Made by a program: the position numbers and the translations under genes. The notes below the pieces were generated by a model. That model ran no database searches, was not told the DNA's origin, and was given only the letters and a program-made list of their open reading frames with translations. A stretch of DNA of 64,000 nt from the NCBI GenBank assembly GCA_027406905.1, contig DAHZHT010000007.1, forward strand, positions 1,024-65,023, read 5' to 3'. The stretch is from Elusimicrobiota bacterium. Its GTDB lineage: Bacteria > Elusimicrobiota > Elusimicrobia > UBA1565 > UBA9628. Shown in pieces: positions 7,301 to 33,316 of the stretch; position 1 is the first letter of the stretch, and every line of letters starts with the position of its first letter.

Positions 7301-8517
7301 AGGGCTTCCACTGATTGTTTAAGTTCACGCTCTAGCCGCACAGACGTTTCGTGCAAAACCTTAATCTCACCATCCTTTTGCCCCAGGGCTTCCACTGATT
7401 GTTTAAGTTCACGTTCTAGCCCTTGGTTTTTCTCGGCAGTCTTTACTAACTCTTGCTCAAGTCGCGCAGACATTTCGCGTAATCTCTCAAATTGCTCTGT
7501 ATAGGCAACTATATGCTGCTCGCGCTCCCCAGCGACCTCCTGCGTCATTTCAAGCTTTACCTGCAATTGGTCAATTGACGATTGCATTGAAACTAATGCT
7601 GGTGATGGATAATTTACGCCTACAACCTTAGCTGGAGACGTGTGAACTAATATCTCGCCTGAGTACTGCGGTTTATGCAATAGCATAAGTGCCAAATCAT
7701 CTGCGGTGTTAATCTCTGGCAAAGGACGTCCTTGACGATCAAAAAGCCGCTTGGCATCCTTCCAATTGATTTTTTCCAACTTTTTCAGAGATATCATCAG
7801 CAGACCGAATTCTTTTGCCCCACTAAAAATATCATCTGAATTACCAAAGTAGTTGTCACGATTATAGGCCGAACTCAACAAACCAAACGATTGATAGCCG
7901 CGTGAACGGCAAAACTCCAACAACTGAATTCCTGCTGATAGAGAATTGCATTCGGCAAATATAGTTGGTTGCCAGTTGGATATGGATTCCCGCGCTCCAT
8001 CAATCACTTGACGCTCCATGCCCTCAACATCAATCTTAATAAAATCGATTTTCCCCAACTTCAATTGGTCAATGGTAGTTATTGGGCATTTATAACCCTT
8101 GCCAGTTTCTATGGCCGAAGGACAATCTATCAGAGAAAAACTCCCCAGGCTTCCCTTGACCTTCAGATCAATGCTCGGCAATAAAATTTTTCCTTGGCGG
8201 TCGGACAGGGCGACATTCAGCGCGGAAATATTGCTGATTTTATTGGCCGAAATATTTCGAGATAAGAAATCAAAGATTTCCCGGCGCGGTTCAACAGCGT
8301 AGACAGAGCCCTTGTTTCCCACGAAGCGTGAAAAAGCGAGCGCGTGCGTCCCAATATAGGCTCCAATATCCAGAACTTGATCTCCTTGAGCAATAAACGA
8401 GGACAGGACCTCCAGTTCATCTTCTGCCCATTCACCGTATATAGTCAATGACCGCGATAGGATCTCATCCGAATCGATCACGTCCATTGTTCCGTATCGA
8501 GTCTTAACAATGCTCAT
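4330..8517 (-). CDS. Multidomain glycan-assembly protein: FkbM-type SAM methyltransferase + coiled coil + GT9-like (heptosyltransferase-fold) domain + WbsX-type glycosyltransferase domain
   Basis: 1395-aa ORF.
- N-terminus: [15 protein letters not shown]...[16 protein letters not shown] (FkbM-like).
- Residues ~310-450: heptad-rich, with internal repeats.
- Middle: [17 protein letters not shown]...[15 protein letters not shown] (GT9 signature).
- C-terminus: [28 protein letters not shown]...[14 protein letters not shown] (WbsX family signature).
There is a 4-nt overlap with wzt. Confidence 0.75.
   Translation of the reverse strand: [1395 protein letters not shown]
7195..7460. repeat. Nested perfect direct repeats inside the coiled-coil coding segment (56-nt pair and 47-nt pair)
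   Basis: The 56-mer AAGTTCACGTTCTAGCCCTTGGTTTTTCTCGGCAGTCTTTACTAACTCTTGCTCAA occurs at 7195-7250 and 7405-7460. The 47-mer TCACCATCCTTTTGCCCCAGGGCTTCCACTGATTGTTTAAGTTCACG occurs at 7283-7329 and 7367-7413, an offset of 84 nt (28 codons). At protein level the pattern is [18 protein letters not shown] / [16 protein letters not shown] x2 / [18 protein letters not shown]. Confidence 0.9.
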
Positions 8518-9887
8518 GCGATTTTTAAATCGGCCTTTTCAATTCTTATCTTCATGCGCATGTGACATGCCCCGACTATCCCATGAACCAAGCGACTCTG
8601 AATAGACTTAATAGCAATGGCGTCGTGCATTAAATGATGCTGAAAATGTTCTTCACCTTGCCCTTCCGCTATAGCCACAGTTACAGTATAATCTCCTTGA
8701 ATTAAGATGGGCATTGTAAAAGAGAACTCCGCCGTCGCCAGCTCATCTTTATTTAATACAATCGGACTGTCTCTAAAATGAAAGTCAGTCCCCTCAGCAC
8801 ACACATACTGACCCAAGCGATCCTTAATTACAAATCCAAAAGCTGGATATCGAATCGGGCGCAGCGCTCTCGCCAGAACAGAAAAACAAACCCTCTCGCC
8901 GCCCAGGATAGTCGAAAGTTGCCTGCCATCATCTCCCATGAACCCTGCATTTATGATCCTGGCTCCACCTGCTCCCAAGCTTTCCGCATCATGGCGTAAT
9001 GGGGAGACATGTAATACATTTGGTATTCCATCTTCCCCATCAAAAATCCTCTCCGACGCGGATATAGATTGCAAAGACTTTGATCCCACGCCGTTATCAA
9101 TATGCACTCTCTCGCCTTCCGAGGGAAGCGGTCTCGACCTCTCGGCATAAATTTCCTCAAGATATATCCGCGATATTTCCTCCACTGAGCCAAGAATAGG
9201 TTGTTTCTGACTTCCCAACGGCAATAAAATCGCCACATTGCATAAAGCCTTTACAGCTGACATGTCGTGACTGACAAATAGAATAGTTCCACCTTTGTCT
9301 TGAAACTCATGCAAAAAGCGCATACACTTCTGGGTAAAAAAAACGTCCCCGACGGCCAGAGCCTCATCAATTACCAAAATATCCGCGTCGACATGCGCGA
9401 TGACGGAAAAGGCCAGTCGAACCTGCATGCCGCTCGAATAGGTCTTGACCGGCTGATCAATAAAATCCCCGATATCGGCGAATTGGACGATCTCGTCATA
9501 TTTTGAGTCGATCTCTTCCTTGGAGAGGCCCAAAACCGAGGCGTTGAGATAAACGTTCTCCCGGCCCGTAAATTCCGGGTTAAAACCCGATCCCAATTCT
9601 AAAAGCGCGGCGACGCGGCCGTTGACCTCGATCTGCCCCTCGGTCGGAGTCAAGGTCCCACAGATCATCTGCAAAAGAGTGGATTTGCCGGATCCATTTC
9701 GCCCGACGATGCCGAAGGTCTCGCCTTTCTTGACTTCAAAAGAGACGTTTCTCAGCGCCCAAAAATCCCGATGAAACTTTTTGCGCCCGCGCCAGAGAGA
9801 TTGCTTGAGCCGGTCATGGGGCCGATCATAAATTTCATAGCGCTTGCCGATATTTTCGGTCCTGACGGCGAAACCGGAGGATGTCAT
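8514..9887 (-). CDS. wzt: O-antigen/polysaccharide ABC exporter ATP-binding protein with C-terminal glycan-binding (Wzt_C-like) extension
   Basis: 457 aa with Walker A GRNGSGKST, signature YSSGMQVRL and Walker B ILVIDEAL. About 200 extra C-terminal residues are beta-rich, as in Wzt-type transporters. Partner permease wzm lies at 12674..13588. Confidence 0.85.
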   Translation of the reverse strand: MTSSGFAVRTENIGKRYEIYDRPHDRLKQSLWRGRKKFHRDFWALRNVSFEVKKGETFGIVGRNGSGKSTLLQMICGTLTPTEGQIEVNGRVAALLELGSGFNPEFTGRENVYLNASVLGLSKEEIDSKYDEIVQFADIGDFIDQPVKTYSSGMQVRLAFSVIAHVDADILVIDEALAVGDVFFTQKCMRFLHEFQDKGGTILFVSHDMSAVKALCNVAILLPLGSQKQPILGSVEEISRIYLEEIYAERSRPLPSEGERVHIDNGVGSKSLQSISASERIFDGEDGIPNVLHVSPLRHDAESLGAGGARIINAGFMGDDGRQLSTILGGERVCFSVLARALRPIRYPAFGFVIKDRLGQYVCAEGTDFHFRDSPIVLNKDELATAEFSFTMPILIQGDYTVTVAIAEGQGEEHFQHHLMHDAIAIKSIQSRLVHGIVGACHMRMKIRIEKADLKIA

Positions 9888-32564: not shown

Positions 32565-33316
32565 GGAGCTTTTCCGGAAGACCACAATTCTTCCAAATGG
32601 TTTTTGTCGCGCAAAGTGTCCATCGGCTGCCAAAATCCCTCGTGAAAATAAGCGCGAAGGCTTCCTTGTTGGGACAACTGCGCCAAAGGTTCTCTTTCCC
32701 AGATCATCTCATCTCCGGAGATTAAATCCAGGACTTGGGGCTCTAAGACAAAAAAACCGCCATTGATCCAAGCTCCATCCCCATGGGGCTTTTCAAGAAA
32801 ACGAAGAACGCTTGAGCCTTTCAGTTCAAGAGCCCCAAAACGCCCCGGAGGCTGAACCGCCGTCAAGGTCGCGAGGTTCTTATGCGAACGGTGAAAATCA
32901 ACGAGTTTTTGAATATCCACGTTCCCCACGCCGTCGCCGTAGGTCAGGCAAAAAGTCTTGTCGCCGACATAGTCTTTAACGCGCTTGATCCGACCGCCCG
33001 TCATCGTCGCCTCTCCGGTGTCCACCAAGGTCACCTTCCAGGGCTCCGCGCTATTTTGATGGATTTTCATCGAGTTATTGGCCATGTCAAAAGTGACATC
33101 GGACATATGGAGAAAATAATTGGCGAAATATTCCTTGATCATGTATCCCTTGTATCCCAGGCAAATAATGAAATCATGGATGCCGTAATGGGAATAGATT
33201 TTCATCACGTGCCACAAAATGGGTTTGCCGCCAATCTCAATCATCGGCTTTGGACGCAGGGACGTTTCCTCGCTGATGCGGGTGCCCAACCCCCCGGCCA
33301 GTATTACCGCTTGCAC
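32546..33316 (-). CDS. rfbF: Glucose-1-phosphate cytidylyltransferase
   Basis: 256 aa: (M)[66 protein letters not shown] start preceded by GGAGAAAG. Confidence 0.9.

Follow-up and report, generated by a model that had tools for sequence, protein, structure and literature searches.

Mosaic O-antigen and capsule loci (rfb, cps) are composed of conserved nucleotide-sugar and export genes surrounding variable, low-GC, serotype-specific genes, and blocks of such genes are exchanged between lineages. Chromosomal hot spots for toxin-antitoxin (TA) modules have been described in Photorhabdus, where modules are repeatedly acquired at one spot, pseudogenisation affects the toxin first, the neighbourhood is not conserved, and TA modules are rarely clustered with defence systems (Belot et al. 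2026; PMC13617665). Homology-facilitated illegitimate recombination (HFIR) has been proposed to account for C-terminal displacement in Rhs proteins and for the effector-immunity arrays of the Vibrio cholerae type VI secretion system (T6SS), with their orphaned stubs (PMC5361080), and PDC-S01, an ATPase fused to a PD-(D/E)XK domain, is a very common defence candidate whose validation is pending (PMC12988326). The present analysis concerns a stretch of 64,000 nucleotides (the window) from an Elusimicrobiota bacterium (GCA_027406905.1, contig DAHZHT010000007.1), in which the region 8514-33316 is, judging from its predicted genes, an O-antigen-type glycan locus combining Wzm/Wzt export, the CDP-dideoxyhexose genes rfbF, rfbG and rfbH, and serotype-specific transferases. 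Ten accessory cassettes are located at the gene junctions of this locus, and it is considered probable (roughly 0.7) that cassettes of a selfish or defensive kind build up and are replaced here at a glycan recombination hot spot, where recombination relying on one-sided homology (HFIR-like) would leave gene-end stubs behind.

The likeness to the Photorhabdus hot spots lies in the small clusters with high turnover, the repeated independent acquisition and the frequent loss, mainly by toxin pseudogenisation (PMC13617665), whereas the cassettes analysed here are placed inside a glycan biosynthesis and export operon, at individual gene junctions, have no integrase or transposase nearby, and include PDC-S01 candidates mixed with the TA modules. 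The locus also resembles the Rhs/T6SS displacement arrays (PMC5361080), in that a conserved part of a gene would act as anchor, the displaced end persists as an orphaned stub, and successive events would build an array. Here, however, the stubs (referred to below as echoes) are the ends of housekeeping glycan genes (rfbG 5', rfbH 3' and wzx 5') and derive neither from the tips of toxins nor from immunity genes, the inserts are unrelated TA/defence cassettes, and the mechanism is one that we infer. As in mosaic rfb and cps loci, gene segments are exchanged, since in one related lineage (L095, see below) the C-terminal domain of Wzt and the downstream transferases are replaced; the difference is that about 35% of the present locus (8.6 of 24.8 kb) consists of accessory cassettes. 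In the literature searched, O-antigen loci with internal TA or defence cassettes had no direct precedent, and in a paper on Leptospira the TA modules lie outside the rfb locus. The parts and processes are individually known and no new mechanism is established; what is combined here is a TA/defence hot spot and a displacement array, both within one glycan operon in which no recombinase was found.

Annotation was based on open reading frame (ORF) calling and on domain scans with Pfam, NCBIfam and PADLOC. The seven TA or abortive-infection (Abi) modules comprise three MNT/HEPN pairs, DUF433/DUF5615, BrnTA, AbiE and HigBA, of which four (MNT1/HEPN1, MNT2/HepT2, DUF433/DUF5615 and BrnT/BrnA) occupy the wzm/wzt junction, AbiEi/AbiEii the wzm/wzx junction, and MNT3/HEPN3 together with HigBA the rfbF/rfbG junction. 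Their adjacent toxin and antitoxin domains mark them as putative type II/IV TA modules, Pfam matches lying above the gathering score for both partners in all seven pairs with the exception of BrnT, which was recognised by translation. The three remaining cassettes are AAA_14-DUF4143 ATPases, one at the junction of two GT2 glycosyltransferase genes and two between rfbH and a prt-like gene, all matching the PADLOC candidate PDC-S01 (E = 2e-58, 9e-57 and 8e-47). An earlier note on this DNA had counted seven TA/Abi modules and three ATPases at gene junctions, and Pfam and PADLOC bear out that count, the latter also confirming both AbiE genes.

Several cassettes are tied to their neighbours by overlaps or carry predicted promoters of their own. 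The wzt start overlaps the MNT1 stop (ATGA), and MNT3 has taken over the start and seven codons of the ancestral rfbG, overlapping rfbF, as judged from a related lineage (L085) in which this site is empty. The first four codons of rfbG are supplied by the end of the HigBA cassette, which at its other end carries a predicted promoter/operator, TTGACAATATGTCATATTTGATATACAAT; an exact search with the 29-nt HigBA promoter gave no match in metagenome contigs. Predicted promoters were also recognised for the BrnTA module (TTGACA-N17-TACACT at 12632-12604, promoter scan) and for ATPase 1 (TTGACA), the stop of which overlaps the start of the 670-aa GT2 gene.

The concentration of cassettes in the glycan locus was assessed relative to its surroundings. 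All 10 of 10 lie inside the locus, which makes up 39% of the window (probability under uniform placement ~8e-5), and phmmer/HMM searches combined with Pfam scans of all remaining ORFs detected none of these families in the 39 kb outside it. A background set of 80 unrelated rfbH loci (1.42 Mb; rfbH 59-66% identical, among the matches listed) contained 0 such ATPases (HMM) and one TA match, a BrnT (phmmer). The locus is far richer in cassettes than both its flanks and the 80 other rfbH loci. Of the features expected of a hot spot, clustering beyond expectation and variable content within conserved flanks (across six lineages) were observed, and an association with mobile elements was not: in agreement with the earlier note, the major ORFs of the window yielded no Pfam domain of an integrase, transposase or recombinase; for three large ORFs (661, 571 and 751 aa; 605-4313 and 41176-43431) Pfam gave no match at all at E <= 0.01. 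Scans of the window for tRNA genes, Rfam families and near-identical plasmid sequence likewise found nothing.

Three pairs of gene-end echoes proposed in the earlier note are all real, and in each case the two copies form a direct repeat that brackets a cassette (Table 1). The echo of the rfbG 5' end aligns at 83% over 104 nt (30902-31005 versus 31731-31834) and, at the protein level, at 88% identity to RfbG residues 1-33 (tblastn, E = 1.7e-13); codons 1-33 of the echo (31730-31828) form part of a 46-codon ORF whose ATG overlaps the HEPN3 stop. Within codons 5-33, 12 of 87 positions differ, and 11 of these 12 differences are synonymous, exactly as had been counted previously, corresponding to proportions of 0.49 synonymous (pS) and 0.015 nonsynonymous (pN) differences, to a dN/dS of 0.02 and to a binomial P of 2.9e-6. 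This echo, the resident gene and a sister-lineage rfbG are separated by similar distances (12, 13 and 15 differences), and a close relative (L001) has exactly the window's echo next to a differing rfbG. Because the differences are almost all synonymous and the three sequences are about equally distant, the two copies diverged while both were functional in different lineages. For the same reasons, namely the synonymous differences and a separation between the copies as large as that from the sister lineage, target duplication in situ was considered and ruled out. The echoes are diverged alleles joined by recombination rather than decaying in-situ duplications, in agreement with the earlier proposal that they are not fresh duplicates.

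The repeat around AbiE requires a correction to what had been called a wzm echo. Its first copy (13580-13633) covers the wzm start and upstream sequence and equals the first 15 codons of wzx, and its second copy lies at the wzx start, so that the repeat, although real, consists mostly of the wzx 5' end and the region upstream of wzm, with only 9 nt of wzm itself. The echo of the rfbH 3' end is recognisable at the nucleotide level over 40 nt (28508-28547 versus 25780-25819, 90%, blastn) and at the protein level over residues 421-450 (60% identical, tblastn, E = 1e-4). With the remnant found between ATPases 2 and 3, each member of this pair has a copy of the rfbH 3' end on either side. A fourth echo, of 24-34 nt, reproduces the MNT2 start region upstream of wzm and thereby flanks wzm; the sequence TCCAACGCAAGATGAG, which had been considered as a shared boundary motif, belongs to this echo and is not a general site. 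Overall, the repeats at cassette boundaries derive from nearby gene ends, are 17-148 nt long, differ in sequence and share no common motif, the echo copies being 6-17% diverged. The arrangement corresponds to that of stubs in displacement arrays, a gene-end stub lying beside a module as a diverged functional allele, with the intact gene continuing beyond; an abiEi stub beside VapBC in lineage L090 (see below) counts as a further example.

The same locus was traced in several lineages of metagenome-assembled genomes (MAGs) through close homologues of RfbH, Wzm and HigB, and six lineages were compared, L001 denoting GCA_027343145.1 and L085 and L090 denoting GCA_027326945.1. The occurrence of the same cassettes at the same places without polymorphism, which would have spoken against exchange with related loci, was not seen; instead, empty sites, additional cassettes, non-orthologous ATPases and a relocated HigBA unit were found, as the notion of cassette exchange predicts. 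L001 (96-98% DNA identity) shares with the window the order rfbF-MNT3-HEPN3-echo-HigBA-rfbG, and carries in addition a cassette at the rfbG/rfbH junction (DUF7718 and a 68-aa gene), seen in no other lineage, and, separating ATPases 3 and 2, a 2-kb cluster of zeta-toxin-like type, with a 17-nt flanking repeat and a third copy of the junction echo. In L085, L099 and L002 the rfbF/rfbG junction is empty, with an exact breakpoint, rfbF overlapping rfbG by 19 nt in L085 and L099. At the rfbH/prt junction, ATPases 3 and 2 are present in four lineages, L003 holds a non-orthologous ATPase (25-28% identical) and L002 none; in L099 a transketolase pair takes the place of the prt-like gene directly after the ATPase pair. 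The window's own rfbG/rfbH junction, where L001 holds its DUF7718 cassette, may be a scar of cassette loss. The rfbG 3' end and rfbH 5' end at 29773-29840 are unique to the window, and rfbG encodes 391 aa as compared to 372-377 aa elsewhere.

At the GT2/GT2 junction, L085 and L099 carry a different ATPase, 28% identical to ATPase 1, together with both ends of the window-type gene. Independent insertion of the two ATPases was considered and rejected in favour of differential loss, given that L085 keeps both of these ends; the arrangement indicates an ancestral tandem ATPase pair that underwent reciprocal loss. On the wzm side, L090 has VapBC and a 17-codon abiEi stub, and L095 has a full-length AbiEii as well as ParE and BrnTA modules. 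A 1.3-kb insertion of BrnTA and DUF433/DUF5615 in the window is absent from L090 and L095 and has no flanking repeat. HigBA lies in L095 between MNT1 and wzt, 91% identical over 720 nt to the unit that the window holds at another junction; both copies share the promoter/operator at one end and ATGAGCGAGAT at the other, the latter providing in the window the first four rfbG codons. A single sample (ERZ27236996; L089, L093, L088 and L115) holds two versions of the locus, with either AbiE or VapBC beside wzm and with or without HigBA at wzt.

Erosion of the modules occurs, among other routes, by deletions between short repeats. HEPN1, HEPN3, HigB and DUF5615 appear full-length in the window, and three of the seven toxins are eroded, namely BrnT (frameshift), HepT2 (two deletions, one removing the RX4H histidine, by alignment to HepT of L090 and L095) and AbiEii (an in-frame 249-nt deletion, 83 residues, relative to the 264-aa version of L095). 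In L090, HEPN1 is deleted between 13-nt repeats. Coupled gene ends are retained after deletion in the form of an in-frame HEPN1 stub (L090) and of the HepT2 3' end; a general rule that deletions preserve translational coupling does not hold, since L085 retains an out-of-frame stub of ATPase 1.

Comparison with GCA_027326945.1 also reveals an exchange on a larger scale. Identity is 96-99% over 1089-13770 and 85-90% over 16302-41319, the switch being located at the AbiE/wzx junction, and the near-identical block is composed of wzm, MNT2/HepT2, (HEPN1)/MNT1, wzt and the downstream glycosyltransferase genes. This jump in identity points to a recent move of the export block, with its embedded MNT/HEPN modules, between lineages. 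The import implied is of at least 12.7 kb, its left end lying beyond the comparable part of the window. Of five structural differences inside this near-identical stretch, four fall in TA cassettes (the BrnTA/DUF433 insertion, the HEPN1 deletion and two HepT2 deletions).

The ATPases share with PDC-S01 of defence islands (PMC12988326) the AAA_14 and DUF4143 architecture and have AbiE and TA modules as neighbours in the same locus. They differ in that no stand-alone island is formed, the genes being inserted one at a time among biosynthetic genes, and in that ATPases 2 and 3 retain 90% identity in four lineages (ATPase 2, for example, relative to its L085 and L099 orthologues). Members of the family occur on 240 plasmids at <=35% identity; the best plasmid match of ATPase 2 is on a Simkania (Chlamydiae) plasmid (35% identity). 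In the leader of ATPase 2 (27073-27130), a TATAAT box is enclosed by the inverted repeats TTGAAA...TTTCAA, an arrangement resembling an operator/promoter, and the same 22 nt precede ATPase 3.

Table 1 Coordinates of the glycan locus genes, cassettes and gene-end echoes in the window.
Feature	Position	Strand	Description
FkbM-methyltransferase/GT9 protein, 1395 aa	4330-8517		Adjoins wzt
wzt	8514-9887	-	ABC transporter ATPase; Pfam ABC_tran and Wzt_C (C-terminal glycan-binding domain)
TA module 1	9884-10653	-	HEPN1 (NTase_sub_bind, 10216-10653) and MNT1 (9884-10219); Pfam; 4-nt overlaps on both sides
TA module 2	10650-11280	-	MNT2 (10861-11280) and HepT2; Pfam
TA module 3	11337-11973	+	DUF433 antitoxin-like (PF04255, E = 1e-9) and DUF5615 PIN-like toxin (PF18480, E = 6e-7)
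TA module 4	12074-12640	-	BrnA (12074-12337, Pfam) and frameshifted BrnT (three-frame translation)
wzm	12674-13588	-	ABC-2 permease; Pfam ABC2_membrane
Direct repeat around AbiE	13580-13633 and 14917-14970		54 nt, 94% identical; repeat search and alignment
AbiEi/AbiEii cassette	13718-14882	+	Pfam; both genes confirmed by PADLOC
wzx-like flippase gene	14924-16282		
Glycosyltransferase genes (n=4)	17345-21600 and 22818-23867		
ATPase 1	21597-22751	-	AAA_14 and DUF4143; PDC-S01, E = 2e-58; GT2/GT2 junction
Two SDR epimerase/reductase genes	23836-25787		
rfbH 3' end echo	28476-28562 and copy 25750-25836	-	Brackets ATPases 3 and 2; copy between ATPase 2 and prt-like gene
ATPase 2	25888-27072	-	PDC-S01; rfbH/prt-like junction
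Middle rfbH echo remnant	27108-27129	-	22-nt exact copy of sequence just downstream of rfbH stop; 99 nt long in L085
ATPase 3	27163-28356	-	PDC-S01; rfbH/prt-like junction
rfbH	28466-29827	-	DegT-family gene; homologues named RfbH or CDP-6-deoxy-D-xylo-4-hexulose-3-dehydrase
rfbG	29824-30999	-	TIGR02622, 461 bits, above cut-off
rfbG 5' echo	rfbG codons 5-33 (30902-30987) and 31730-31816	-	Brackets HigBA
HigBA cassette	30989-31708	-	higA 31021-31356, higB 31343-31675; Pfam
MNT3/HEPN3 cassette	31825-32564	-	Pfam; compared with empty site in L085
rfbF	32546-33316	-	Glucose-1-phosphate cytidylyltransferase; TIGR02623, 480 bits, above cut-off

The components that define an ABC-transporter-dependent O-antigen locus, being a Wzm permease, a Wzt with a glycan-binding C-terminus and RfbF, RfbG and RfbH, were all identified (Table 1). 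The best named matches come from Elusimicrobiota MAGs (rfbH ~70-72%, HigB 69-70%, Wzm 53%), which is suggestive of the source taxon, and neither for P0127 nor for the rfbG of the window was an exact match found. The FkbM/GT9 protein next to wzt has 1395 aa as compared to 1353 aa in its 99%-identical orthologue of L090, owing to an internal repeat-associated indel near 7193-7337. Outside the locus, 55639-56022 encodes a 127-aa protein with a SWIB/MDM2 domain, which is unusual in bacteria.

Considering that the echoes are diverged functional alleles, the following sequence of events is proposed. Where one gene block meets the next, small accessory units have piled up, several of them bringing their own promoter. 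DNA entering from a related strain that holds another cassette would pair inside a conserved glycan gene (for example rfbG, rfbH or wzx), and the non-homologous far end of this donor DNA, consisting of the cassette and its copy of the gene end, would then join illegitimately a short way into the recipient copy. Only those products in which an intact glycan gene is rebuilt would survive, the recipient's old gene end staying behind the cassette as an echo, and insertions would be tolerated if operon expression is kept through start/stop overlaps or a cassette promoter. No recombinase would be needed. Such displacement would leave the end of the old allele in place, which would explain why the stubs are diverged functional alleles, and it would likewise explain their varying lengths, the presence of one junction copy per stacked cassette and the lack of a recombinase. 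Through gain, replacement, relocation and erosion, the cassettes turn over much more rapidly than the glycan genes, and diversifying selection, presumably driven by phages, may be what causes the locus to recombine. A number of points weigh against this account: ATPases 2 and 3, being orthologous at 90% aa identity in four lineages, do not represent fast turnover; no donor molecules or recombination intermediates were observed; the HigBA unit ends, on its left, no more than 21 nt from the echo end, a neater fit than would be expected of random illegitimate joining and a possible hint of a discrete mobile unit; the TA screen of the 80 loci used only the families of this locus, so that other TA families would be missed; and, of the genome outside the locus, only the 39-kb flanks and, in relatives, ~10-kb flanks were covered.

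The earlier note had favoured a functional linkage, in which receptor-glycan genes and abortive-infection or addiction modules are co-selected and transferred together, the cassettes being entrenched by overlap with essential genes and in turn holding the serotype block together. The 96-99% identity of the wzm-TA-wzt block between genomes that are otherwise 85-90% identical lends partial support to exchange as linked units, and cassette and glycan genes do overlap or are translationally coupled (ATGA overlaps; MNT3 on the rfbG start), two deletions having kept the coupled gene ends; ATPases 2 and 3, moreover, mark the very point at which prt and the transketolase pair alternate as the sugar-modifying genes. 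A stabilising role is not supported, as indicated by the erosion of three of seven toxins in the window, by the loss of HEPN1 in L090, by the out-of-frame ATPase 1 stub of L085, and by the finding that the structural differences in the exchanged block fall mainly in the TA cassettes. Considering further that TA modules of Photorhabdus do not conserve their neighbourhoods (PMC13617665) and that no defence phenotype is known for PDC-S01 (PMC12988326), this linkage is regarded as unlikely. The suggestion that the locus represents a kind of system not described before is not supported either, since it matches TA hot spots of acquisition and erosion (PMC13617665), and it is the fallback offered in the same note, an extreme accumulation of TA modules at a recombination hot spot, that fits best.

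A recombinase encoded elsewhere that moves site-specific (integron-like or att-dependent) cassettes, with the repeats as duplicated attachment sites, would account for the HigBA unit, which has sharp shared ends in two contexts, for the direct repeats around several cassettes and for the tandem stacking at the rfbH/prt junction with a copy at each joint; a 568-aa ORF in L095 (5670-7376), absent from the window, has a weak DDE_Tnp_1 match (E = 0.002, below threshold) and may be a transposase. However, the locus differs from an integron-type array in that neither an adjacent integrase or recombinase gene nor a shared attC-like site at the cassette boundaries was found, the major ORFs of the 64 kb giving no integrase or transposase domain and the Rfam scan no match. 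Its repeats are local gene ends of differing length and sequence, with copies that are diverged alleles carrying synonymous differences, unlike a target duplication or an att core, and the BrnTA/DUF433 block was inserted with no repeat at all. Such a system is accordingly judged highly improbable. The chance that co-occurring strains were collapsed or chimerised during assembly, generating false junction duplications, is smaller again and close to negligible: the data are of MAG type and sample ERZ27236996 does contain two locus variants, yet the rfbF-MNT3-HEPN3-echo-HigBA-rfbG arrangement recurs in at least eight independent assemblies (NCBI, ENA and Logan) from different samples and pipelines, the echo remains identical in the window and L001 next to differing rfbG genes, and a divergence of 6-17% is not that of collapsed repeats.

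Beyond the preferred reading of cassette turnover at a glycan recombination hot spot, a more speculative extension, which we hold to be improbable, is that in this lineage the receptor-glycan operon may be the preferred chromosomal home for post-adsorption defences (AbiE, HEPN RNases and PDC-S01), so that a new serotype block would import a matched abortive-infection set, with the ATPase pair at the rfbH boundary acting as a portable homology anchor. If true, this would amount to a homology-driven cassette system inside an operon, independent of any recombinase, in which the downstream sugar-modification genes are switched by way of that anchor. Irrespective of this extension, the locus provides a natural example, replicated across samples, of how TA and candidate defence genes, which may act in defence, enter, move and decay in an essential operon without an integrase or transposase, and its junction footprints date and orient the events. 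Intact and eroded alleles of PDC-S01, HEPN and AbiE are available from it for side-by-side tests, and a single recombining locus would tie the diversification of a phage receptor to intracellular defence.

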